A DNA stretch of 64,000 nt from Candidatus Omnitrophota bacterium (lineage in GTDB: Bacteria > Omnitrophota > Gorgyraeia > Gygaellales > Profunditerraquicolaceae), in assembly GCA_022710715.1 (NCBI GenBank), contig JAKLGJ010000002.1, positions 309,453-373,452 of the forward strand. Reading direction: 5' to 3'. Positions 7,501 to 52,500 of the stretch are shown here, one piece after another. The stretch's first letter is position 1. Each line of letters begins with the position of its first letter. Below the pieces are notes generated by a model, which did no database searches, was not told where the DNA came from, and was given only the letters and a program-made list of their open reading frames with translations. Position numbers and translations under genes: made by a program.

Positions 7501-10500
7501 CTGCGCGCTTTACGCTCGGTGCAAATGGCTTTGCAGGGACTCGCCCGGCAGCAGAAGAGGATCGAGGAGGCGCACGTTGCAATTATGGGCGTTTCCTATA
7601 AATCCGGGGTGGATGATACCCGCTATTCTCCGACGGAGACAGCGGCCCGGGCTTTCTTGAAGCTGGGGGCTCAAGTTACGGTGCATGATCCTTATGTTGA
7701 AAGATGGCAGGAGATGGAGCGGGATAGAACGCTGGCCGTGAATTTCCTTAACCATAACGATATGTATTCCGCGTCGCAGGATGCGGATGTGGTTATCTTT
7801 GCCGTGGACCACCCGGAATACAAAAACTTCAATTTTGATTCCTTTACCGACGCCAGGAATAACCGCAAAGCAGTGTTGATCGACGCTTATAACGTGATCA
7901 ACGATGACACTATCCTCAATTTGCTTAGAATGGGCCATGCGGTTTATGGTTACGGCAAAGGGCATATCAAGCGGCTTGAACGTCAGGTTCAGGAGATGCA
8001 GGAGTTGACGGCTGCTCAAAACGGAGAAAGCGCGGATAAGGATCTGGACGGCGGACAAAGCGTTGCGCTTGCGCGCGATGCGGGACCGGTAATCGCCCGG
8101 ATACTGGCGCAGGAAGGAACGGTAGACCTGGCGTGCGCGTCGGGTGAAGTATTTACGCTCGATTACGCCGCGCAGGGAACAACGTATGTCAAGCACCGGC
8201 TGGTCATCTCGCAGGGGGATAGAGTCCGGGGGTATTCTGACGTCGAAGCGGATGTCCAGGTCGGTTGCTACGCAGTTATGGGATGCGGATTCGATCCCAA
8301 GCCTTTTTATGCCGGGAACTGGAAAGAGCTGGCCTGGAAGGAGAGCCGTCATTACGCTTTGCAGTCCCATAGAACAACTTCTCTAGGCTGCTATTCAGGT
8401 ATTGGCCGGACCCTGATGAGCGCGATGCTCTCTCTCATGCGGGATGCGGGAGTGAAAACATTCTTTATCCGGGAGGTTGACCGCAAGGCCGTAGGTTTCT
8501 ACGACGCTCTGGGCTTCGCGGAGTATAAAGATACGATCTATGCCGGCAACGGCGCATCGCTGGGTTACGAGCTCGATCTGGAACGCATCGTGTATCCTTC
8601 TCCGGGCATCGATTTCGTCCCCCTGAAACAGCCGGTTGCGTATCGCATCTCTCCGGCAGCAACCGCGTCGGACGGCGGCGCGGTTACCGAAACTGAAGTG
8701 CTGGAGCAATTGACCGTTCCGCAGACCGGCTGGGAATTGGCGCAAAGCCTGAAGATAAACTCGATCCCGGACGCAGCCCGGTTGTTCAGGATTTGTGCCG
8801 GCAGCCAGGGAATAACCAGCAGGTTCGCCGGGAAGCTCTATGTGCGTATCGCGCAAAAGGAAAACCGGCAGCATACCTTGTCGCCGGCGCTGCTGCGCAG
8901 TTTCCTGGATTACACGGTTATCGCGCGCAGGCAGGATGCGCGCCTTAGGGAAGCGGCTGGCGCCTTGCGCGCTGCCCAGGCTCAAGCCAGCGCCGCTAAG
9001 CTGGGTCTGGCCAGATTTGAGATGACCGATGCCTGGAAGGATATGAATATGTGTCCGGGGATCGCTTTCCTGATCAACGGGGATACCTCCATGGGCATGA
9101 CCAATACGCATAAACGCGAAGAGCTTTTTTCCGGTGAGCTGTTCAACGGATCGGATCTCGACGTGCTCGTGCTTGTCAATGAGCGGCAGAATCCGTTCGT
9201 TGTCGATACGCTGATGCAGAATTTGGAAAACCGTAAGCAGAATCTATTCACCTTCTGGCACGAATCCCTGGATTATACCCTGTATACCCGCAGAGCCTTT
9301 CTTGCCGCAATGGAATCGTTCGATCGCCAGACTGCGGTGAGTATGAGCCAGTTTGCTAAAGCCAGGTTCCTGTGCGGTGACCAGGCGCTGGCTACGGAAG
9401 CGTTCCATGCGCTGGCCCACAGCCGCTGGCAGCGTTATTTCAAAGAGGCTTCTGACGCAGCAAAGCATTCGCGCGCTGCGCTCGTCGCCGCGATGCTGCA
9501 GATACCGGTCGAGGAGTGGAGCAAAGAAATGGTCCGGCAGTTCATGGGGCCGGGCGAGCAATACTGGGAGCTGGAAAGTGCTCACTTCTTCCCGGACGCG
9601 TTCGATGCGGACGGAGGCAGGAATATCGCCGCCGCTTTCTTCGATCTGCGCAAGACCATGCATTCGTATATGTACTTCCCGGGCAAGGAAAAAGATATGC
9701 GGCCGCTGGACCGGAACTGGATCGTCGCATCGCTCGCGGGTGTGGGGGTATTCTATCTGATCGCCGCCTGGTCCAAAGGGCCGCTGGTCATCCTGGGTTC
9801 CTGGGCTGCCTGGCATATCGCGATATTCCTCCGTTCGTATCTGGTCGACCAGTTGCATTATAACCGCAGGCACTGGCGCAAGTGGAGCATGGCGGATTTC
9901 CGCTATCCAAAATTTGCCGGAGCGTTGAGCATGTCCCTGAACAAGATGCTGATCCTGAACGTGTTTGACCTGCTGGTGCTCGGCGCGCTGCTGTTGTTTT
10001 TTCCCGGGGTTTATTTCGGGATTCCCGGTAAATATGTGGCTCTGGCAATCCGCACTGCGATCACGCTGGTATTAAGTTCGTACGTTACCTGGGCGCAGAA
10101 AGGGTTTAATTTCACGCGCAGCGCGGCGCAGGAAGAGGTGATCAAGAATATCGGGTTAAGCCTGTTCTCCACCGCAGTCGGCGCGCTGTACCTTAACGCC
10201 AGCCCCATGGCGTTCGTGGCCCTCTATTCAATCGTGTACAAAGTATTCAGCGAAGCCATCGGAGCCTGGATCGATTACCGCCGTCCCAAACCGCCGCATT
10301 TGTTCCTGCGGCCGGGTGATTATGCCGATATGCCCGCTGAAATCACCGTTCAAGGGCAGCAGCTTTATCCGATGAAGATCATTCGTCAGGTGGAGCGGAT
10401 GGTTAACCGCGATACGCAGCGGATGGAACTGCGCTATGGAATAAACGTCACCGAACCGGCTACTGCGGATAAGCTGATCGTTCCCATGTCCCGGTCCCTG

Positions 10501-28500: not shown

Positions 28501-31500
28501 GTATGCATGCGTGGCGGGAATCTGGATGTCAATGGCACGCTTGCGTCGGCGAAGGGGAAAATCGACCTTGGAACATGGGTAGATATCGCAGGCTTCAGCC
28601 TGATGCGCGGCGTCCCGATGACGGATTCGTTATCCGCTTTGATGCGGTCGGGCATAGTGCTTCTGGATGCGTTTGACCAGCTTCCTCTTGCAAAGCGTCT
28701 TACTTTCTTAAAAGGTCTTACAGCGCTTGCCCGGCAATATCCGCAGGAACTCGAAGAGCTTCTGGCGCGGCTGAACGTACGATTGATCGATATCATTGAG
28801 AAAACGATGACATATCCACGGTCATATCCCCAGGCATTGCCTGAATTATACGAGGCATTGTATCAGGCGGGGTTGGATAACCCGAGGGGGTATCTACCCC
28901 GGGGCATTCCTGCCGGGATAAAAGTGCGCGCCGGACAGGTTTTGGTTGTCGGTGCAGGCAAAATGGGCACAATGAGCGGCGCTTTGATCGGCCGGATCAT
29001 TGCGGCATTGGGAGATGATTTCACTTTTCTGGGGGTAGTAGAGCCTCGGGAAGAGAATATCAGATCATTCACAACGCATTATCTGAAGAAGAACCCGGGC
29101 GCATCCTTGCCGTCATTTTTTGGCTCGATAGCCGAGTTCAAGGCCGCCTCTTCGTTCGATCCCGCGAAAACCGCAGTATATATCGCAACGCCCGACAACA
29201 CCCATTGTGCCGTTCTCAAGGAATTGGCCGCACTGGGAATTACCAGATTCATCCTGGAGAAACCCATAGCCGGTTCACAGGAAGATATCGATGCGATCAT
29301 CCGGCTGCGCGACGAAAAAGGCCTGCATATCGTTATCGATGAACAATTCTTGTATGCCCTGCCCATGCTGCAGGTTAAGGAATATTTGAAAAGGACAGCC
29401 CGCATACCGCTGATGGTCACTCAACTCGGCATAAAAGACCGGACAGCGGATTCGGCCAGCGGAAGAAATATCGAGACCGCCAACATTTTTTATTATGATC
29501 CTTTCCACGCCATATCTATGGCTAATGATCTTCTGGGCTCCGGAGCGGCCGAGGCGGTATTCATGACCGATATGGTCCTGGATGACCGCATCATCGCTTC
29601 CCACGGCTCGGGAGTGGCCATCATGACGCATGAGAAAGGAACGCAGAAAGCCACGGGTGTCATTGCGATGGAACACGAACGGCCGGGAAAGAATACGTTC
29701 GACAGGATACTGAACATTTACAGCAGGGATAGCGATTCGGCTGATTTGAATCTGGTTACCGTCAGCTTCGGTTTTGCGCGGTACTTATTCACCCATCTTG
29801 AGATTGTTGATCAGCACGGAAACGTATTGCAGACCAAAATCGACCAGGATGAAACGCTGACCCTTTCGCTGTATCATTGCCTCATCGGTTTATGGAGCGG
29901 CGCAAAGGTCGTTTCGGAAATAGATGCCATCCTTCTTACCCACGATGTTTTAAGCCAGACGGATTATTTGGCGAATACAGCCAGGCCTTCGGCAGGCTCC
30001 GTGCAGATGGCGGCTATTCATAACCGTGACGCCATGGACTATTTCGAAGATACCGTTTCAGGCATGGCGAAAGGGTATCGGTTCAGGACCGGCCAGGTAA
30101 ACGGCAATATGGAATTAGGCCAGCTGCAGGCCGTCGAGTTCCTCTGGGTAGTGCGCGGCGCGGCGAAAGCCGCTTGTAACGGGCGAGAAGCCATTCTGAC
30201 TGCCGGGGACCAGTTGACAGTGCGGCCCGGCGATCGCGTAGAATTGAGAGGAAGTTTTGATTACGCGCTGGTCGTTTTGTCGGAAACGGGCGCCCGGGCA
30301 TGGGAGACAGCCGTCACTTTCCTGAAAGACGTCCCCGATATCTCCGGCGGATGCAACATAGACCGGAAAAAGCCTTTTCGCAGGACACTCCTGGATGCCG
30401 TAGGAATCAACGGTAGCGACGGTATAAGAGCGCATGTGGTAAAGATTAACAAAGCTACGTCACATCCGCACGCGCATCCCTATTATGGAGCAGGCATATC
30501 TCAAATGGAGTTGTACGTTGTCCTTGATCCTGTCGAATTAGGCATGGCGCCGGAGTATAACCACGGCACTATCGATCTGCTGATCCCATCGTATGCCGGC
30601 GACGACGCAACATACAGATTGTTTAAAGTCGAGACTCAACCCGGAACAGCTATCGTGTTTCCCCCGGGCATCGGCCATCAGGCGGACGGGGTATACGCAT
30701 TGGTGCTCGCGCTCTTGCCCGGGAGCGTTGCGGAAGAGGCGATCGATCTTACTTCCGAGTTTGACGGCGGCGCGGCTCTCGGAGCGCCGCAGCCGGAATC
30801 ACCGTTTCATGTTGTGCACGTTTCTTATCAGGACCCCGAGCATATCGCTGGCGGCCAGGGTGAAGCGGTTCTCAATATCATCCGGGCCCAGGCAGACCTT
30901 GGATACTCGACGACCTGGATATCGCCGTGTGTTAATGACGAAATACCGGGGGAATATCTTTACAGCAATTATAATCTGCAATTGGTGAAGATCAGGATCC
31001 GGGATGACCCGGTAGCGACATTCTTCGATAGCACTGAAGAAACACAGGGTTGCCGCGAAAAATTCGGCAGTTTGTTCGTCGATTACATACAAGAACGATA
31101 CGACCCTTCCCAGGCCTATATTCATCTTCACGGATTTATTGAAGAACCCCGCCGCGCCGCGGCATTACGCAGTCTCGGTTTTAACGTTACTTCTACATTC
31201 CATATGTTTTTGTCGCCGCGCATGGATACGACCAGTGACCATAACGCGTTTTATCCGGAGCTCAAGCGTATCGAATATGAAGCGATAACCGCGAATTCCA
31301 AAGTTATTGTGAATAGCAACGCGATGCGGGAGGAATTGCTGGCGCTGGCAGGCGATTATGCGGGGGATGTGCATATGGTTCCCAACGGTGTCGGGGAAGA
31401 ATATTTCGTTTTATCCGACACTGAAAAGGATGCAGTTCCGCTGGTGACCACCTACGGCAGGATTTCACCCGAAAAGGGGTTCGATACATTTATCGAAGCA

Positions 31501-34500
31501 GCACGCATTATTACCGACAGGCGCCGGGCCCAAAGCAAAAGTCCGGTCAACTTCCTTGTTTTCGGAAAGAGCAATGATGCTATCTCTGCGCGTAAAGAGT
31601 ACCGGCTGAAGCTGGAGCGGCTGGCACGGGATTACGGCAATATTACTTTGAAGATGAGCGGTCCCGGGGTCAGCGATGCCGAGAAGCTGGAGTTGATGCA
31701 GAGAAGCTGGGTGGGGGTGGTTCCGTCGTTATATGAGCCGTTCGGCCTGGTGCTGGTGGAATATATGGCCCGGGGAGTGCCGCTGATTTCTTCCCTGACT
31801 CACGGGTCCAGGGATATCCTGGAGACGGCGCATCCGGGCAGGACGCCCTACGGCATTGTCGTGGATGTCGAGGCTCAGCAACTGGCCGACGCCATCGAAG
31901 AGCTGATTGACAAACGGTCATTAGCAGAAGAGTTGGCCGCGAATGCCCGTACCAAGGCTCTCCAGCAGTATCGCTGGATGCCTATTGCACGGAAAATTCT
32001 TGATATTTACGCGACCGAGAGCTTCTCGGATTTTGAACTCGCGCCGTTCACCCGGGAAGAAAAGCTGGATGCGGTGGCAGTGATGCATGCTATTGAACAG
32101 GCGGACGCGCAGGGCTACGTAGAATTCCTGAGGCCGCTGTTCAGGTCATCCCGCGGGCATAATCGCGCCCGTGATATAGAGCGCATGTTTGAGAACGGCC
32201 GGTTGTACCAAATCTTTCCCCATTTGAAGCTTCTCGCCAGCAAGGAGATGTCCGGCCATCCTGCGCCGCACGAGATGTTCCATGCCCTGGACAGCCTGGT
32301 CAGGCTTGATACTGCGGGGTATTCCGGCATGCGCAGGTTTACGTTCGAGCGCGCAGGCAAAAATGCAGGCGCGCTTCCAGAGGTCGATTTTACCGCGATC
32401 CCCGGGTTTACCGGACTAATCAAGAGAATTTTCTCCCGGACCGACGAAGAAATGCGGGAGATCCTGTTTCTGCTGCCGTTTATCGTGGATATCGGCAGAT
32501 GCGTCAAGCCCCAGGCGCATCCTGAAAGCGGAGCGTTCTATTTTGTAAGCCCGCTTTTAAGCAGGCTCGGCTTCAGCCGGCAGGCTATTGAGACGGCAGT
32601 TGCACTTGTCGGCAAGCATGTGGATATCGGCACGATCGTGACCACCGAAAGCACTCCTGACCGGCTGTTTGCCGGATGCCAGCTTTCCCGGGACGCCATG
32701 GATATTTTAACCCTGGTTGCTATCGCTGACAGAAGCTATGGGATCCGAGCCGATGATCTGACTGTTTTCGAATTCCGCGCCTACCTGGCTTGGGGCGATC
32801 AGGATTCGCCGGAGAGAAGCCAGTGGCAGAATACCGCTGACTGGCATCTGCGCAGGCTGGGCAGGTATTTGAAAATGACTCCCGGAGAAGCGCAGTTGAT
32901 GCTTGATGCCATGGTTGCCGCCGGCCAGCTGGACGCCCGGGATCTGGAGGCCATCAGGCATTTCTTCGGAATACAGATCGAATTTATCGATTACGGCGAC
33001 GGAGTATTTAAATATATGACCGGCAGGCCGGACGGGAAGGAGCTTTTTGTCAAGACGTTGGCTATCTACGCCAGATACCTGTCCGCGATCAGCGCGCCGA
33101 TTAACCGGGTCAACCTGGTTAAGGATAGGTTGTATGTCATGGCTTTGACCAATGCTATGCGCTCTCTGTCGTACTCTTCCTCTCCCGAGGAGATTGTAGA
33201 CCATCTGGCTGCTTACGGTATCGCCTTGGTTCTTGTCGGGAATACCACTCTGGTGACCAGGATTACCGATCCCATTGGCCATCTGCGCAGGTTATGCGAA
33301 GAGCGCTGGGATGCGCTGGTGAATACAGCCTTAGCCCGCCAGGTGCAGGAGCGCGGCATTGAGGAAGTCGAGCAGGCGGTTGATCTCGGGCAGGAACCCG
33401 GGATTATCTGGTTTGCCGAACAGATCAAGTATAAAGTGCTGGACGATCCCGAAGGTATAACGCAAGTGAAGGATATTCTTCCTTCGGCAGAAAGCAACTA
33501 TCAGGTTCAGTACAATGTCAGCCGGGGAGTTCAACGCGGTGTGGGAAGAGATACGGTTCCGGCAGCCAATCAATGCGATTTCTGTCGGATGGCTGTAGGA
33601 AAAGATACCGAAGGCCAGTTGCAGGATCTTGAGGAGGCGCTGGGCTTGCCCTATGTGCTGGTTGCCGACAGCCGTCCCTTCTTCGATCGGCACATGCTGG
33701 CGCTGGAAAAGGACCATACCGGAAAGATCACACAGGAAGGCATGCGGGATCTGTTGACCATCTTCAATACCCTCTTCCCGGGGAAAAGAGGCAATATCGG
33801 AACCGGGAATGCCGCCAGCCACCTGCATATCCATATTTACAATACGAGATTTCCCGTTGAGCGGCAGCCGCGCACCTGGTTGCGCGATTCCGGCGATGTG
33901 CGTGTGGGTGTATTTGAAAACGATGTGCATACCGCCGGATTTGTGGTGGAAAGCGCGGATATGGAAGCTTTATCGGCCCAATCTTACCGGATCGTCCAGG
34001 AAATCGAGTCAAAGGGCTGGCTGGTGATCCTGATCACCGCTCCCCATCAGGTGTACATTATCCCACAGCGGACCAAGGAGATAGGAAGCGATTATCCGGA
34101 TATATTCGACGGGTTCAAGAGAACGCGGCGCCCTGAAACCAGGCCGCGCTACGTGGGGCCGGTGGAGGCGGCAGGCATCTGGCTGTGCTACAGCCGGGGC
34201 AATATCCCCGCCATGTACGAGATGTATGACGCGATGAACCTGGAGATATTCCGCAACATCATCAGGGATACCGGCGTTAACCGCAATGATCCCCGGCTGG
34301 AAGAGATGCTTGCGGGATTGACTGTTGACGGAGGCACTGCGGATCCGGAGGCTCTCGCGGTTTTTAAAGAACAGATGGACGCCAAATGGGAGGCATTGCT
34401 GAACAGGGATCTGGAAGCCAGGGTTGCGCGGGAAGGCATGGCGCGGGTGGAAGCGGAATCCGATCTCGGCCATGAATCGGGGATCGTCTGGTTCCCGGAC

Positions 34501-37500
34501 GAGATAAAATACAAAGTTCTCGACAATCCGGAGGGTGTGCGGGAAATCGGCGGCGTGCGGCCTCCTGCCGACAGCAACTATATGGTACAGCATAACGTCA
34601 GCCGCGGCGTGGCCAAATATCATGACGGCGAAGGCTGCGGCTTCTGTGGAGTGGTCAGCGGCCGGAAAGATACGGATACTATCCTGGCCGATCTCGAGGA
34701 TGTTGTTGGCCTGCCGTACATGCTGGTTGCCGATACCCGTCCGTTTTTCAACAAGCATATGCTCGCCCTGGAAAAAGGCCATACCGGAAGGATTACTGCC
34801 AGCGGCATGCGTGAGCTGCTGACGATCTTCAATACCTTATTTCCGGGCAGAAGGGGTAATATCGGCACAGGCAATGCCGCGGAACACCTGCATATACATA
34901 TTTACGATACCGAATTCCCGATCGAACGCCAGGAACGCAGTTGGCTGGTTGACACTGGAAAAGTCAGGATCGGGTTGCTGGAGAGCGACGTGCATACCGC
35001 CGGCTTCGTAGTGGAAAGCGCGGATATGGATAAACTTTCAGACTATGCCTACCGCATCGTCTCCCGCGTCGAGTCCAACGGCTGGCTGGTGATCCTGATC
35101 ACCGCCCCCAACCAGGTCTATGTCATTCCCCAGCGCACCAAGGAGATCGGGGATAATTATCCTGCGATCTTCGACGCTTTCAAGAAGAGCCGGCCTGCGG
35201 GCTTGAGGCCGCGCTACGTGGGGCCGGTGGAGGCGGCAGGCATCTGGCTGTGCTACAGCCGGGGCAATATCCCCGCCATGTACGAGATGTATGACGCGAT
35301 GAATCTGGAGATATTTCGCAACATCATCAGGGATACCGGCGTTCCCACGGATGACGAAGCCCTGGGTGCAATGCTTGATGCCGTGCGATCCTACGGTCGG
35401 GAATTAAAATCGGATCAGCAGAAGCTGGCCTTTATCGATAACTCCCGGGTGGCGTACGTTGAATTACACCTGACCAATACCTGCCAGCTGAAATGCGGCT
35501 GGTGCGCATATAAGGGGGTGGATAAGAAACAGCATCTGCAGTTTGGCGACCTCGACAAGCTGCAGGAGTTGAATCCGGAAGAAATCCTTTTTGTAGGCGG
35601 AGGGGAACCCACGCTTTACCGCGATGCCCGGGCAGGTAAAGATTTCAACGATGCCGTTCTGCGTGTGCGCCAGCTGTGCCCGCAAGCCAAGCTGCGGCTG
35701 ATCACTAACGGCGTGGTCGTCCCTCCAGGCGAATGGGTCCGCGAGATTTCGGAGTTGAGCATATCCTTCGACGAGCCGACCCGTGAAGGATACCGGGAAC
35801 ATAAAGGTGCGGATAAGTTTGCAGATGTATGGGATAACATGGTCTATTATATTCGCGACAGCCCGATTCAGTCCAACCGTGTTACACTGATCTACAATAA
35901 AGAAAAACTCGAAGCTGCACTGATGTTCGCCGGAAAACTCTGGCGCATGTGGCAGGAAATGACGGATAAAGGGGCACTGTCGCAGGAAAAGGCAGACAGC
36001 TTCCGCTATATGATCTTTCCTATGGCCGATGACAGTAGCCCGGATGCGCCGTATGCGGAAACGAAGCTGACTGATCAAGAACAGCAGGAATGGCAATTGC
36101 GTATGGAGCGTATTCGCGGGGAGAATCCCCGCTGGTACCGGTTCCTGGCGGACCATACCAACCTCATTGTCCAGCCCTTAAGTGTTCTTGACGTGCCGTC
36201 GGTAACCCGCTGCCCTACGGTGACCAATTATCTGGTTATGGCTGCGGATAGACAGTATTATCCGTGTTTTGCCATGTGCGAAACCTGCAGCAAAGTCACC
36301 CTGGGGTCCGTTGAGCAGTCGATGCAGGAATTGGCAACGCGAAGGGCGGCGCTTTACCTGCATCCCGACGAGCGCTGTAAAGAAGGGTGTCGGCCCGGAG
36401 CGACTTTTTACGGGGTGCGCGCGCAGGGTCTTTTTGCCGAACAGTTCAGGAATCGGGTTTTTGCTACATGGCAGGGGCTGGTAGAAACCAAGCTGGCTGC
36501 GGATGTGGATCGGGCCGGCATAGAAACCGTTGAGAAAGAAACCGACATTGGCAGGACTCGAGGCATTGTCTGGTTTCCCAGCCGGATCAAATATAAAGCG
36601 CTGGGAGATGCGTTTACCAAAGAAATCCGGGCCGGGCCGCAGGCTCCGCCTGCCGGCTCATATCTAGTCCAATACAACGAGAGCCGGGGTACCAGCCGCA
36701 GCGAACCCAAAGGCTGCGTTTTCTGCCAGCCCAGAGAGAATCTGATCCTCGCCGACTTGGAAGATTATTTCGACCTGCCGTATATCCTCTACGCCGATTC
36801 CCGCCCCTTCTTTGATAAACACATGCTGGTTATTGCCAAAAGGCACACCGGTGTGATCACGTTGAACGTCCTGCGCGATTATCTCTGGATATTGAATACT
36901 CTTTTTCCCGGATTGCGTGGCAATATCGCAACCGGCAACAAGATGGCGCATTTTCACCATCATATCTATGACGTCGAATTCCCGGTGGAGAGAAGGCCCA
37001 AACGCTGGTTGATCGAATCAAAGCTGTTTAAGTTCGGCACCGTCGATAATGACGAGGATACCGCAAGCTTTGTGCTGGAAAGCGAAAACAGCGATATCCT
37101 GGCGCGCAAGGCTTTTATCGTGATCAAGGAACTTGAAGCCCGCGGTTTGCTTACCTGCGTCGTCGTCGCGCCTCATCAGGTGTATATCACTCCCCAACGC
37201 ACCAAGAGCATCGGTGACGATTATCCGGATGCCCTGGTGCCGTTTACCGCGCATGTTCCTGCCGGCGTGCGTCGCAGGTTTATCGGGCCGGTGGAGACCG
37301 CGGGAATATTCCTCTGTTACAGCCGCCCGGATATACAGGCGATGAAACAGATGTATGAAGGCATGGATTATAGTCTGTACCAGCGCATCCTGCGGGATGT
37401 CGGTGTTTCTCGTGGGGACCCGGCGATGGCTGACCTGGAAGCCCTGTTTGCTCTGGTGCTGGACGAGGAAAGATTTTTCATGAGCCTCTTCGACATGCAG

Positions 37501-40500
37501 GCGCAGAACAATGCGTTCTCCGGCGGCAAGGGCGCGAATTTAAGCCATCTGGCCGCATTGAGCGGTTTGCTGCGCGAGCCTTCGGCTGCGGATATCGATC
37601 TAACCGTTCCGATAAGTTACATTGTTTCTGCCGGTGTTTTTCAATCCGTGGTCTTGAGCCGTCCGGAAACAGCGGCTAAGATCGAGAAGTTGGAAGCGGC
37701 TTCGGCCGCATTGGAAACGGCTGATGTCATTGAGGCCGTACGCCTGGAGGAAGAGATTGTTTCTCTCGCCAGAGCGATTCGTAATGACATCCTCTCGGTA
37801 GAGCTGCCTGCTGAAGTCAAAGAGGGATTGGCTGTTATATTCGCTGCCGCGGGGTACCGGGCTGCGATGCGCAGTTCGGCGACCGTCGAGGATTCCGACC
37901 AGAATTCCTGCGCCGGTCAGGCGAAGAGCGCCTTGAATGTGATTACTGCGGAACAGGCGGAATCAGAGCTGAAGCAGGTGTGGGCAAGTCTGTATGACCC
38001 AAGTTTCGTCCAATACCGCAATGACCGGAATGTGGGGCATGCCGGTTCTTTCATGGCAGTGGTGGTGCAGGAAATGGTCGATGCGAAAGTCGCCGGGGTC
38101 ATCCTGACACTGGAAGAGCAGTCGAAACGGTCCGCTTTCCGCGTGACCGCTAACTGGGGGCTGGGAGAATCCGTGGTGCAGGGAGATACCCAGACGGATT
38201 CCTGGCTAGTCAGCCCGGATGCCCGGTACCTGCTGGAATCACGCATCGGGGTCAAACACCTGAAGACCGAATATGACCCGGAGCGCGGCGGGGTGCGATC
38301 GGTTGCAACCAATACTGATGCTGCGGTCAGCTCGTTGTCCGATCAGCACGTCCTGGCCATATGCCGGGTGGCTAGGATGATACGTGATCATTACCGCGCG
38401 CACCGGCAGGTAGCTCACGTGGACATTGAATTCGCGGTCAGCAAAGGCGATAATAAGCTTTTTATCCTTCAGACCCGGCCGGTGACTTCCGGCGATATCA
38501 AAGAAACAATAACGATAAATACGGTGATCCGGGACCGTCAGACGGAGCCTGTTGCGGAAATAACCTTCAAGCAAGGTCTGATATCCAATAAAGGAGCTGT
38601 AACCGGACGATTGCAGGTTGTCGAACGGGCAGACGGCTTCGATGAAGTGCAGGAGGGGGTTATCCTGGTAGCATCCGCAACGAATAACAACTGGAACGCC
38701 GCGTTCAAGAAGATCAAGGCAGTGATCACGGATTTTGGCGACAGTAACTGTCATGCGGCGATCGCTTCCCGGGATGCCAAGCTGGGGCTGGATATACCTT
38801 CGCTAGTCGGGGCTAAAGACGCTACCGCCAGGCTTAAGCCCTATGAAGGGCAGATCGTGACCATTGATTCCCGTCTGCGCACAGTATTCATCGGGGAAAT
38901 GCCCATCGAACCCCTGGAAGTTGAAACGGCTCTCTGGCTGGAGGAGGCTCTTGCGATACGCAGTCAGTTCGAAGGTACGATGTGGCAGCGGTTGAAGGGG
39001 TATGCTAATGCCATGAGCGATTTTGAAGGACACTGGTTTGGCCGCCCGCGTATTCCCTATAGCTTTTTCCAGCTTGATTATTATGACCGTGCGCATGAAC
39101 GGACCGATCGGATACATACCGTGTTCGACTGGCCGGAAAACTCCTTTGAGGGCCCTGTCCCCGCGGTGGAAGCCTGGGGCAGGAAAATAAAGGACGATAT
39201 TATGTATCTGGAGGTCCGGGATGAACCGTACGATGCCCTGGGCGATTTCTTGAGCAGGTTAACCATCGACGGTTTTGAGTATCTTTTTGACCGGCGCTGG
39301 GAAGAGATACAGCGGATCGAACAGTTCACGGTCGGCCTGGAAAAGATCACCGCTTCCAACGCCGCAGATGTGTCCGCCCTGCTGGTAGAAAGCCTCTTCT
39401 GGTCATCCCTGGCTTTTGCGATCAAGGACGCTTTGCTTGAACGCTATGTGAATCCGCAATTGCGCTATATTTCCGACGAGCGCGACGAATCGGGGTATTC
39501 CTACCAGGAGATCATGAAGGACCTTGCGCTGGAGCGCAGGTATCCCGATCGCACGCGCAGCATCGAATCCGCCTACGCCCGGGAACGGGAAAGTATCCTT
39601 CAGGAGATTTTCGGAAATCCCTCTGCCCGGGCGCTGCTGATAGCCGGAGACTACCAACGGTTTGCTGCCGGCTATCCGGGTTTCATGTCCCGGCTTGAGG
39701 CATTGTCCGCATCGTACAAATTCGGCACCGAGGACGTCAGGGTTCTTTCCGATACCCGCCGCTATCTTGAGAGTTTCAGGAATACCCTCGCCAACTACTC
39801 TCCGGATCGCAGGGCGTTGCAACCGGTCAGCCCGTTGAGAATGAACACCGCGGAAGATGCTCTGAAGACCTATCCCAGTCTGGAGAGGATCCTGGCTTTA
39901 GCCAAGCATAACGAGGATGTCAGGAACGATATGCACCACATTATTCTCAGGCTGCAGAGGAAGATCGCTCCCCTGATGACAGGGATAGCCGGGAGCTTTC
40001 CGGATATCTTCGATTCCGCGGAAGATATATTCAGGATCTCTACGGTTGAGCTCGAGGCTCTTCTGCACGATGATCATCCGTACTACCTGCGCCTGACTCC
40101 GTATCGATACAGCCTGACGACAGAAGCGGAACAGGCATTGGAATCAGCATGGTTCGAAAACAGGGCAGCGGCTTTAGAAGAGTACCGCACCTCGGTCGAA
40201 CGGATTGCGGTTATCCTGGAACAGCAGATCGGTCAGGCGGCATATCTGCCGGTCAAGGAGTATTATGCGCAGGAACGCGACCGATTGTATCGCCGCGTGC
40301 TGAGGCTGGAACAGCTTGATGGCGGAGCGGCATCCGGACGGCCGAACAACCGCATCCGGGTGCTGTGTCTGGGCGATTCCATCACCAAAGGTTCGCACGG
40401 CCGGCATCGGCCGGACGTCTTCGGTTACAGAAAAACGCTTCAGCGTTTGCTGGGGATGCAGGACTACGAGTTAGTCGGGCCGTACCGTAATCCGCCCCTC

Positions 40501-49500: not shown

Positions 49501-52500
49501 AATCTCATCTATACCAACTATCTGGCTTCTTTCGAGTCCAAACAGCGCTATCGCCTCAAAGATCTCTTTAAAGGAATGGAGATGATCCCCGACTGGCAGG
49601 GCGAGATCTATAAAGCGAATATGGCGGTTTTTGCGGCTAAACTGGACGAGTTATTGACCGAAGGGATCATCGGCCTGGAATTCGACCAGAAAAAACCGCG
49701 GCGGATGCTGGTGGATGCGGTTAAACTCACGTTGCAGCGTTTCGGACAGGCCAGGCCCCAGAAGAAAAAAGGTAAAGAAGAGGCTAAGCCGTTCGCGAGG
49801 ATCAAGGGTATGCTGGGCGAAATATCCGGCCTGCATAAATTCACCTTTATCTTCGAGGATACCATAGAGTTTCTGCATTCGCTGGCCAATCTGGAAGAAT
49901 ATCAGCGCGTGTTCACCTCGGTACGCGGCTGCAAGGAAGTGGACGCGACCAGCCGCCGGACCATACTCGAATTCAAATATATGACGCATATGCGCGATCT
50001 CTATGAGCAGATCGCCGGGTACGGAAAAGATATCTCGGTATTCAGCATGCTTATTTCGGCGCACAAGCGCCGGGATGGGTTCTCGCGCGCCGATGATAAA
50101 GCGCTGGAAGGCGTGCACAATATCGTCTACTTCGCCGAAAACGACTGCCAGATGGTCGCGGCGGTCAACCGTTTTGTCCGGCGTTACTCAAAACGCCACG
50201 GAGATGAAGTCGATGCCCAGATGCATAAAACGCTCCTGGAGCGCACGATGAGCAACGGGGAAGGTTTTACCGTGCGCATGACCATAGATGAATTCCGGGC
50301 CTTGCTGCTTGACGATCGCGTCATGCAGTTATTTTTACGCGAGATTGAAGCCGGGGATTGGCAGTGGAAACGAAACGATGTTATCGCCGATATCAAGTTC
50401 ATATTCAGCCAGTTCAAGAAATACGTCCCGCACGATGATTTCGATATTTATTTGAGCGTGAGCAACCCCGCCGTGCCGGATGAGCAGCGGATACCTGCGG
50501 TCGCGGATACGGAACAGCCCGACGGCGGGTACAAAAAAGCGGTTGATAGCTTCTTCGAAAATAAGCTTCCTTTTGAGGATAACCGGTTCCGTCCTTTGAC
50601 CGCGGTCAAATTTATCCTGGGCAGCATTGCCACCGCGATTGGCATGGCGCTGGGCGGCATAAGCGCGTATATACTGTTGCAGGCGGCTGCCTGGATAGGA
50701 ATGGTCATCGGCAGGAACATCCTGGTGGATATGAAAGCCTGCCGGGAAGCCGAGAATAAAACAAGCTGCATGCGCGACCAGCTCTCGGCACTGGCTTCTT
50801 TCCGCAGGAAAAAACTCGCCAATGACATGTTTGTCAGCGGTTTTTCGAGTATTCCCATCATCGCAGTCAAGATGTTCGGTTCCAACTATCTGGCCGCCGA
50901 ATTTTTCCCCGGGCATGTCGCCGCGCAGATACTCCTGGATATCGCTATAGTCAGTCTGGTCGGAGGATTGATCAATTACTGGCAGCGCCTGGCGAGGGAT
51001 TATTCCGCGGCGGTATCACTGAAAGATTTCCGCCGAAGCTTGCTAATGAGCGCCGGCGCATACGGGATATTCATTATTCTGTTTGCCATCGGCATGACTC
51101 AAACACTGGTCTTCTCCGCGGTTATATTCGCCCTCACGCGCAAGTTCATCGGCGAAGCCTATGCCGCGTACGCGGAGTATCCCGAAGTCAAAGAAAATTA
51201 TGCGCGTAATTTCAACGGCAATAACGGCGGGAAAGAACAAGACGGCGGATTGCTGCAGTCCCGGATGGAGCGTCGGGCGTGGGGAGGGAAGATCCTGCCC
51301 TACGGTCAAGCGGCTGGTTTATTTAAAACTCAAGAATTTCACCGGTTGCGGCGCTATATTGCTCGCGCAGTTCGCAGTGGAGTAAGGTTCATTATTATCG
51401 GGGAGTCCCACGATATGGAGGAAATCAACCCGGTGGTTACCGGGATCCTGAACGCCGTCCGGGAGCAGGGCAAGCGGCCGGCTTTGTATCTGGAAGCCCT
51501 GACCAGCGGAAGGTATGATGAAAAGGGCGAGGTTCTGAAAGATCCCCGCCGGGTCTACGGCCACAATCCCTCCAAGTACGACCGGCTTATAGAGAGCGTG
51601 ACAAAGAAAGGGATCGACGTTTTCGGTATAGACGCCGCCTGGACCAGTACTTTTGATGCGGAACGGGTCCCTTACTGGGCAGAGTACATACTGGCTAATT
51701 CAGGCGAGGTGGCGGTTATCCTGGTCGGAGCGGGGCATGTCAATTATTGGCAGCAGTCTTTCTCCAAAAACCCGTTCTTCTTCCTGCCGGTTATGCTCGT
51801 GCAGCGGGGAGTGTCTGCTTCGGAGATACTCACGCTCACGTACGCCAAAGTGTATAATGCCGATGCCGCGGGAAATCTGGGGGCGGCATATCATCGCATT
51901 GCCCAGACACGGCAGCTCAACAGCTTCAAGGAGTCCCGCGAACATCCGGTTCTGCGTTATTTCCAGGAGCACGGCATTGCGGACGTCCTGGTGCTGGGGG
52001 TGAATATTTCCCATCACGCGCAGCCGGCGGAAAGCGACGGCGGAATAATTTTCAGCCATGACATCATTGAGAAATGGCAGTATACGGAGCAATCCGGCGG
52101 CGTAGAGATGCAAGGGGACTTTTCGGCGCTACCGGGTAACCGCGAAGTTTTCCTCGGCACGGTGAAGATGAAAATTACCGGCGACGCCGTGATCGCGGAC
52201 ATGTGCAGCGATATTCAGACACATATAGCCGGACAATACCTGGGTGAAGAGATGTTCACCCGGGCATATGTGCACGCCTATGGCGTAAGCCACCGGTGGG
52301 GGTTGTATCCGTCGAGCGCGCACGCGGGCTTTATCCTGGATATGCCGGAGATCGGAGAGCCTGATGTGGCGCTCAAGGTTTTGTTGAGGATGGACCGGTT
52401 CTTCAACCGTCTGCAAACCCATTATCTGGAAAAAGACGAGATTTCCTATGACGTGTTCCGGCATCACCCTTCCTGGGAGTATTATTTCTGGGAAGCGCCG

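Follow-up and report, generated by a model that had tools for sequence, protein, structure and literature searches.

Three probable histidine-triad-superfamily domains in a recurrent enzyme cassette of a giant Omnitrophota reading frame, two of them sharing a putative gene-conversion tract

What are the three similar blocks, each of about 1 kb, that follow one another in a Candidatus Omnitrophota contig, and how are they related to each other and to their neighbors? The question arises from a stretch of 64,000 nucleotides (contig JAKLGJ010000002.1 of assembly GCA_022710715.1, positions 309,453 to 373,452, forward strand), referred to here in its full length as the window. An earlier reading of this DNA (the original prediction) had proposed a triplicated histidine-triad (HIT)-like module, with gene conversion between two copies and a radical S-adenosylmethionine (SAM) domain inserted between copies. 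Frame +1 contains no stop codon across the 64,000 bases, compared with 729-781 in the other forward frames, and the window (1-64000, + strand) is therefore an internal slice of one open reading frame (ORF) of more than 21,333 codons, in which dozens of enzyme domains are fused and both ends lie outside the window. Within this ORF, the three blocks are likely to be domains of a rare HIT branch, with an Apa2-type fold and DUF4922 as the nearest family, in a giant multi-enzyme ORF of the Omnitrophota type.

The three collinear units that had been claimed were all found in frame +1 with a profile hidden Markov model (HMM) built from the family, which also set the unit borders (unit length ~345 aa). 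Copy 1 (33292-34326, + strand, aa 11098-11442; family HMM score 532.7, E 9e-164) and its tandem duplicate, copy 2 (34369-35397, + strand, aa 11457-11799; score 526.8), lie before the radical-SAM domain and are designated type A. Copy 3 (36448-37455, + strand, aa 12150-12485; score 495.4) lies after it and is designated type B. The CxxC pairs, reading CDFC, CGFC and CVFC, were located at 33574-33585, 34636-34647 and 36715-36726, respectively, and the His triad was found as HLHIHIY at 33820-33840 (copy 1) and 34885-34905 (copy 2), and as HFHHHIY at 36949-36969 (copy 3). The other motifs quoted previously (IIWF..IKYK / IVWF..IKYK and AD[ST]RPFF[DN][KR]HML) were located as well. Copies 1 and 2 share 64% protein identity and 67% DNA identity, and copy 3 shows 44-45% protein identity to either of them. 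All 25 family-invariant residues, including the CxxC pair, His144 and the H-x-H-x-H motif, are kept in the three copies, and therefore none of them looks degenerate. The units are not separate entities, each with a leader, as originally described; they are instead domains of one giant polypeptide, and the supposed leader corresponds to the N-terminal helical part of the fold.

The HIT homology of the unit was reached only transitively, through a family profile that retrieves proteins passing Pfam cut-offs. A 13-sequence profile of the family reaches DUF4922, Ap4A-phosphorylase and GalT proteins. When 1.84 billion cluster representatives were searched exhaustively with an HMM, 26 proteins were retrieved at E <= 1e-3. 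The distant matches, several of them above Pfam cut-offs, carry DUF4922 (up to 69 bits), Ap4A_phos_N, ATP_transf and GalT domains, the last including one Pfam-confirmed GalT protein (P0021, E 2e-4); in four others (P0014, P0016, P0019 and P0020), scanning found no Pfam domain. The profile-profile comparison with HIT/GalT families was carried out with hhalign, in which the 13 units aligned with five DUF4922 proteins at a probability of 99.6-99.8% (E 2e-24, 247-248 columns), with the CxxC of the unit placed on GCxLC and HLHIH on HxHFQ of the DUF4922 proteins. Sequence-profile matches in the PDB were all small HIT proteins with marginal E-values (~0.02-0.04) and the same motifs aligned; the closest was the Zn-bound HIT protein 3o0m, in which the CxxC was aligned. 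Additionally, an AlphaFold2 model of copy 1, based on the 13-sequence alignment (pLDDT 88.5, pTM 0.88), displayed the alpha+beta fold of HIT proteins. A 4-sequence model was poor (pLDDT 57) and was not used. Foldseek comparison with the PDB placed six yeast Apa2 chains first (4i5t, 4i5v and 4i5w; E 5.6e-9 to 1.5e-7), followed by the Mycobacterium tuberculosis Ap4A phosphorylase Rv2613c, Zn-bound HIT, Hint and aprataxin (probability 0.66-0.98). The triad motif of HIT proteins is present in each copy, and across the 13 family members its first His is invariant, while the second and third are conserved in at least 90%. These profile matches, alignments and predicted structures bear out the HIT-superfamily claim and support the unit as a divergent domain of this superfamily with a predicted two-lobed, Apa2-type fold, on the nucleotidyl-transferase/phosphorylase side.

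Several observations weigh against this assignment. None of the HIT-clan models of Pfam/NCBIfam (HIT, DUF4922, Ap4A_phos_N, GalP_UDP_transf) matched any window copy at E <= 0.1, and the best curated match over the 13 family members was DUF4922 at E 0.16, in 1 of the 13. The Foldseek superpositions have a root-mean-square deviation of 5.5-8 A and TM-scores of ~0.5-0.6. According to the rules described for HIT proteins, the second His acts as nucleophile and the first as a Zn ligand, and the form HXHXQ marks the GalT family (bioRxiv 10.64898/2026.09.13.751320). The GalT-family motif H-X-H-X-Q-phi-phi is not found in the window copies, which have His at the fifth position, and in the family member P0009 the triad reads HFQHHIY, with Gln at the presumed nucleophile position. 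As for the history of the copies, the split between type A and type B units is weakly supported (bootstrap 34% and 42%, neighbor-joining only). Separately, an EF-hand_14 match on the copies (E 0.02) was rejected as chance.

The fifth-position His also counts in favor of a different activity. With it, the window copies carry the canonical H-x-H-x-H-phi-phi of the hydrolase branches in place of H-x-H-x-Q, and the units could be Hint/Fhit-like hydrolases of nucleoside phosphoramidates or dinucleoside polyphosphates, or non-catalytic nucleotide-binding modules, rather than phosphorylases or transferases of nucleoside diphosphate (NDP) sugars. The direct PDB sequence matches are small Hint-like HIT proteins, and NUDIX domains, which hydrolyze NDP-X compounds, accompany the gene cassette described below in P0002/L003 and are present elsewhere in the L002 ORF. 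However, the full-length fold and domain organization fits the two-lobed Apa2 (~350 aligned columns) and not the ~110-residue Hint dimer, the nearest sequence families (DUF4922, Ap4A_phos_N, ATP_transf and GalT) are all transferases or phosphorylases, and the family member P0010 has HQHIQ. A dead module agrees poorly with the family-invariant residues kept in the three copies and with a ratio of nonsynonymous to synonymous substitutions (dN/dS) well below 1. We consider the hydrolase or non-catalytic alternative unlikely and retain the transferase/phosphorylase assignment.

Comparison with known systems places the unit more closely. Yeast Apa2 provides the best full-length fold match (Foldseek E 5.6e-9, probability 1.00, TM-scores 0.51/0.58, ~350-360 columns) and has a monomeric two-lobed HIT architecture, with the histidine motif in the first lobe, which the unit would share. 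The two differ in sequence (12-14% identity; the Pfam models of Apa2 do not detect the unit), and the unit has HxHxH for HxHxQ, possesses a CxxC pair and starts with a helical part of ~95 aa. It also differs in context, being found only in a cassette with GT4, radical SAM and dikinase, mostly fused into very large proteins. The closest sequence family is DUF4922 (PF16269; GGP/VTC2, GDPGP1), to which GDP-L-galactose phosphorylase and GDP-D-glucose phosphorylase owe their domain assignment (PMC11047344, PMC7041677). Shared boxes include QYNxSR, CxxC, the His motif, PVE, VVES, YIxP(Q/R), a C-terminal E-x-(A/G)G and ILRD, whereas overall identity is ~21%, HLHIH stands against HxHFQ and the gene context is different. 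GDPGP1 converts GDP-glucose and phosphate to glucose-1-phosphate and affects glycogen levels (PMC7041677), which fits the glycogen/starch enzyme domains elsewhere in the window ORF. The GalT classes I and II belong to the same superfamily, and the unit is predicted to share their ping-pong nucleotidyl-His mechanism; its CxxC pair and candidate His ligands resemble the structural zinc site of GalT (bioRxiv 10.64898/2026.09.13.751320). GalT is nevertheless much more distant, with the motif HPHGQ, and class I GalT, an obligate dimer, forms its active site at the subunit interface.

How the copies arose was addressed with a neighbor-joining tree with bootstrap, rooted on the DUF4922 proteins and the sole tree method used. 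The tree does not agree with a triplication: copies 1 and 2 are sisters, copy 3 pairs with the unit of P0009, and both groupings have 100% bootstrap. Units located before the radical SAM (type A) comprise copies 1 and 2, P0002, P0003, P0004 and L002, and those located after it (type B) comprise copy 3, P0005-P0009, L004 and L005. Two type-A units in tandem were present in no other locus found, and the arrangement in P0002/L003 is A, radical SAM, B. Between copies 1 and 2, dN/dS is ~0.17, indicating purifying selection. The divergence outside the near-identical tract described below (dS 1.95, dN 0.34) therefore argues firmly for an old tandem duplication under purifying selection, specific to this lineage and with synonymous sites nearly saturated (dS ~2). 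Copy 3, by contrast with this pair, appears clearly to be an older paralogue, because it pairs with P0009 and falls, with weak support, among the post-radical-SAM units; it occupies the slot between radical SAM and dikinase, like the single unit of several other loci.

Superimposed on this old duplication is a tract of near identity at the C-terminal end of the unit. On the copy-1 side, it spans 34141-34278 (+ strand) and encodes RPRYVGPVEAAGIWLCYSRGNIPAMYEMYDAMNLEIFRNIIRDTGV; on the copy-2 side, it spans 35206-35343 (+ strand), with 136/138 nt identical. The only mismatches, at 34239 and 34251, are both synonymous transitions, and the longest exact run is 98 nt. The tract had been described as 148 bp long with two mismatches; the number of mismatches stands, but the length is 138 nt, since positions 34279-34288 carry six mismatches. 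Likewise, the offset of exactly 1,065 bp between the copies applies to the C-terminal two thirds, and indels raise it to 1,080 nt in the N-terminal part, while the gap-free aligned part outside the tract shows 71% nucleotide identity rather than the ~75% estimated by eye. The proposed nucleotide self-comparison recovered both the 1,065-nt register and the near-identical tract with a repeat finder, and the pair of copies 1 and 2 is the sole nucleotide-level repeat within the 64-kb window.

For the tract, the Nei-Gojobori method gives dS 0.07 and dN 0 (copies 1 and 2), compared with the values given above for the remainder of the pair. Third positions are 96% identical in the tract (44/46) versus ~45% elsewhere in the pair. 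None of 20,000 permutations of the mismatch pattern matched the tract, and the longest permuted exact run was 49 nt versus the 98 observed. This difference in dS upholds the proposed gene conversion, and the simplest reading would be a recent non-reciprocal exchange that homogenized the last 46 codons (138 nt) of the unit.

Two other explanations of the tract were considered. The source is very probably a metagenome assembly, and in a de Bruijn graph an exact repeat of 98 nt can give rise to a branch point; mis-assembly or repeat-homogenizing polishing could then have produced the tandem pair or the tract, the true copy number being different or the shared tract absent. The assembly hazard raised in the original prediction is real to this extent, although it is confined to that one 98-nt exact repeat. 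A false duplicate would be near-identical throughout, whereas outside the tract the two copies have different bases at 29% of the aligned positions, with dS ~2, and the reading frame, linker and family-invariant residues are intact in both. Moreover, a 138-nt tract in 71%-identical flanks is shorter than typical reads, so that mapping-based polishing would not homogenize it, and both residual differences are synonymous transitions, as real post-conversion divergence would give. An artefact is thus very improbable. Under the second explanation, the nucleotide sequence as such would be selected, be it as an RNA structure, as an internal regulatory element or as a recoding signal. In its favor, the tract includes the peptide that is best conserved across the family (RxRYVGPxExAGIWLCYSR), and the end of the tract coincides exactly with the domain-linker boundary. 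The predicted RNA folding energy of the tract is ordinary, however (z = -0.50; 54/200 shuffles fold at least as well), and RNA structure was rejected on this ground; the same peptide segment in copy 3 and five other loci shares only 37-54% of third positions with copy 1, which argues against a family-wide nucleotide constraint. Selection at the protein level is unable to explain the 44 identical third positions of the tract alongside the low value in the rest of the pair. We give selection on the nucleotide sequence hardly any credence, and a recent non-reciprocal exchange remains the preferred explanation.

The radical-SAM domain does lie between copies 2 and 3, as was predicted, but it is not an insertion between repeats: it accompanies the unit in every related locus, placed before it in some and after it in others. 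A GT4 glycosyltransferase, the HIT-like unit, the radical SAM and a dikinase resembling phosphoenolpyruvate (PEP) synthase make up a cassette that is found again in each related locus. In L001 (Logan SRR1027651), these are four adjacent separate genes, encoding a PPDK_N/PEP-utilizers protein, a GT4, the unit (P0001) and a radical SAM; a possible continuation of the radical-SAM gene into a second unit scored E 0.14 and is cut off by the end of the contig. Fused versions were seen in P0002, P0004-P0008 and L002-L005. The order is GT4, unit, radical SAM, dikinase in L002; NUDIX, GT4, unit, ~210 aa, radical SAM and the start of a second unit in P0002/L003; unit, radical SAM, dikinase in P0004; GT4, radical SAM, unit, dikinase in P0005; and radical SAM, unit, dikinase in P0006 and P0007. 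In L005, a separate GT4 gene is followed by radical SAM, unit and dikinase as one fusion gene. Since L001 has all four enzymes in genes of their own, at least part of the giant genes would have been built from pre-existing operons.

In the window, the first part of the cassette is a GT4 (GT-B) glycosyltransferase domain at 30850-31995 (+ strand; Glycos_transf_1 E 7.6e-27, Glyco_transf_4 E 1.4e-10), which shares 36-54% identity with the unit-adjoining GT4 domains of L001, L002, L003 and L005. It is followed, directly upstream of copy 1, by a conserved region of ~420 aa with no known domain (32002-33285, + strand). This region is 39.5% identical to L002 7481-8701, and visibly similar stretches are located upstream of the unit in P0003 and P0004; Pfam and PDB sequence searches with it gave no match. 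It may represent a fifth component of the cassette.

The radical-SAM domain was delimited at 35431-36447 (+ strand; PF04055 E 2.3e-9, score 38.1 bits, gathering cut-off 29.5). Its CX3CX2C motif reads CQLKCGWC (35482-35505), and the C-terminal part is Cys-rich (twitch/SPASM-like). Seven Cys are invariant in eight family members, comprising the three of CX3CX2C and four further ones, which suffice for one auxiliary cluster (twitch-like). PF13186 (SPASM, seven-Cys motif) gave no match on the window domain in the Pfam scan, and distant radical-SAM relatives do carry PF13186. The window domain shares 45% identity with the separate radical-SAM gene of L001. Its best solved relatives are weak ones, MoaA and viperin-like enzymes, and a PDB sequence search with the radical-SAM domain alone gave no match. 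Among stand-alone radical-SAM relatives, three neighborhoods were examined; the cassette was found beside none of these genes, and two of the three adjoin PNP_UDP_1 genes of the nucleoside phosphorylase family (L006 7844-8680 and the contig of P0030). FGE-sulfatase-domain genes were observed near P0030 and in L005 (1949-3523), and more distant radical-SAM/SPASM relatives carry a fused CTP_transf_3 cytidylyltransferase domain.

Downstream of copy 3, a PEP-synthase-like dikinase was identified at 37522-40350 (+ strand; PPDK_N E 4.9e-59, PEP-utilizers E 2.5e-14). It consists of an ATP-grasp domain (PPDK_N, 37522-38496), a phospho-His swivel domain (PEP-utilizers, 38650-38871) and a conserved C-terminal region, and it lacks the PEP-binding TIM barrel. 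Its best PDB relatives were deposited as PEP synthases (8a8e, E 3.5e-47; also 5fbs and 5hv2, both of which we take to be rifampicin phosphotransferases). The C-terminal region (39001-40350, ~450 aa) has no Pfam match and is kept in L001, L002, L004 and L005. Since it occupies the place of the PEP-binding barrel of PEP synthase, it probably binds the substrate of the dikinase.

By analogy with GalT, Apa2 and GDPGP1, a mechanism for the unit can be proposed. The middle His of the triad (H181 of copy 1) would attack the alpha-phosphate of an NDP-X substrate, either an NDP-sugar or a dinucleoside polyphosphate. A covalent nucleoside monophosphate (NMP)-His intermediate would form, and the NMP would be passed to phosphate or to a sugar phosphate, so that the unit would work like Apa2, GalT or the GDP-hexose phosphorylase GDPGP1. 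The CxxC pair, His144 and the first triad His may hold a putative structural zinc; these candidate ligands (C97, C100, H144 and H179) are invariant or nearly so in the family.

On the cytoplasmic side of the giant polypeptide, the cassette as a whole might phosphorylate, nucleotidylate, radical-modify and transfer a sugar-like compound. This tentative proposal follows from what the partners act on: nucleotide-linked or phosphorylated substrates in each case, whether the NDP-sugar-using GT4, NUDIX, the dikinase or the radical SAM with its nucleotide-acting relatives. Taken further, and only tentatively, the GT4, the Apa2-like HIT unit or units, the twitch-type radical SAM and the dikinase, often with NUDIX, might constitute a self-contained, undescribed pathway in which a sugar- or nucleoside-like compound is phosphorylated, activated as a nucleotide conjugate, radical-modified and transferred. 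Such a pathway would exist as an operon in some bacteria and be welded into the Omnitrophota giants, and the extra tandem HIT copy would reflect early subfunctionalization still partly erased by gene conversion.

The family is extremely rare, with ~13 clear members among the 1.84 billion cluster representatives (E 3e-166 to 2e-26), most of them inside proteins of 1,600-4,600 aa; the cassette would therefore be a compact target for enzyme discovery. P0001, a 348-aa stand-alone homologue, was the sole find of two word-index searches over 5.8 billion proteins. In GTDB (185,579 species genomes), the unit matched only two Candidatus Omnitrophota metagenome-assembled genomes (MAGs), at 56-57% identity, and a JGI metagenome scan added two further loci only. 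The relatives that bear on the taxonomic origin of the window are 55-58% identical. In L002 (Omnitrophota MAG JBAZTA010000002.1), the unit lies inside a 21-kb stop-free stretch. Variation of the triad was observed among the members, as in P0010 (HQHIQVY, GalT-like and the only member with HxHxQ) and P0008 (HPHMHLF). P0003 also has, at ~aa 470-700, a second and more canonical GDP-hexose-phosphorylase-like region (..AAASINHLHFHGVYYP..), and therefore two different HIT-branch domains in one polypeptide. The giant ORF of L002 additionally includes NusG, YkuD (L,D-transpeptidase), HD_4, HAD and NUDIX domains, NusG being an odd component of a giant enzyme polyprotein.

The window itself resembles the giant multi-enzyme proteins of Omnitrophota. 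Its single ORF, well over 10,000 codons, is tiled with many different enzyme domains in one frame, including GT5, GT1/GT4, PPDK_N, radical SAM, HAD, methyltransferase and HEAT. Carbohydrate-type Pfam domains on the ORF are GT2, GH9, two UDP-glucose dehydrogenases, starch synthase, GDE_C, alpha-amylase and GT4. Further domains are radical SAM, PPDK_N/PEP-utilizers, GDSL, several methyltransferases, PRK, CYTH, a cytidylyltransferase, HEAT, PHP, HAD and GT1/GT5. In two preprints, comparable giants are described as 'Archaeovorins' (West-Roberts et al. 2023, bioRxiv 10.1101/2023.11.21.568195) and as 'multi-enzyme metabolic clusters' (Nielsen and Lui 2026, bioRxiv 10.64898/2026.06.07.730766). Nielsen and Lui conclude that domain repeats in giants are generally old, with their nucleotide similarity dissolved (bioRxiv 10.64898/2026.06.07.730766); the window differs from this in its one recent 138-nt tract. 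In the sections read, and by a term search of West-Roberts et al. (bioRxiv 10.1101/2023.11.21.568195), no description of the HIT-like unit, the four-part cassette or intragenic gene conversion was met.

HIT enzymes, giant Omnitrophota genes and gene conversion are already known, and what is new here is an unannotated variant within these kinds. The assignment provides a name and a testable chemistry for a 1-kb block that recurs in Omnitrophota giants and is unmatched by Pfam/NCBIfam models. Furthermore, intragenic tandem duplication followed by gene conversion would be a live mechanism of giant-gene growth and homogenization, in contrast with the published view of old domain repeats.

The cytoplasmic placement assumed for the cassette derives from a Kyte-Doolittle hydropathy scan, in which a 19-residue mean >= 1.8 was taken as transmembrane-like. 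No such segment was found between nt 10029 and 50914; therefore, the studied region lies on one side of the membrane, and we infer the cytoplasmic side because radical-SAM and ATP-/NAD-dependent enzymes are present there. Clusters of transmembrane-like segments were observed at nt 1-2373, 9937-10029, 50914-51135 and 62869-62928, and they flank a stretch of ~41 kb (13,600 aa) without any. All carbohydrate and nucleotide enzyme domains of the ORF fall inside this stretch.

Repeated Pfam families were also observed elsewhere in the ORF (window positions 1-29400 and 37501-63999), including UDP-glucose dehydrogenase (twice), three starch-synthase GT5 stretches, methyltransferases and HEAT. Unlike copies 1 and 2, these have no nucleotide-level similarity to each other. 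The ORFs listed by the ORF tool in the region were rejected as genes, being antisense shadows of frame +1. Of those with at least 200 aa, all but one are on the minus strand, mostly in one antisense frame with few stops.

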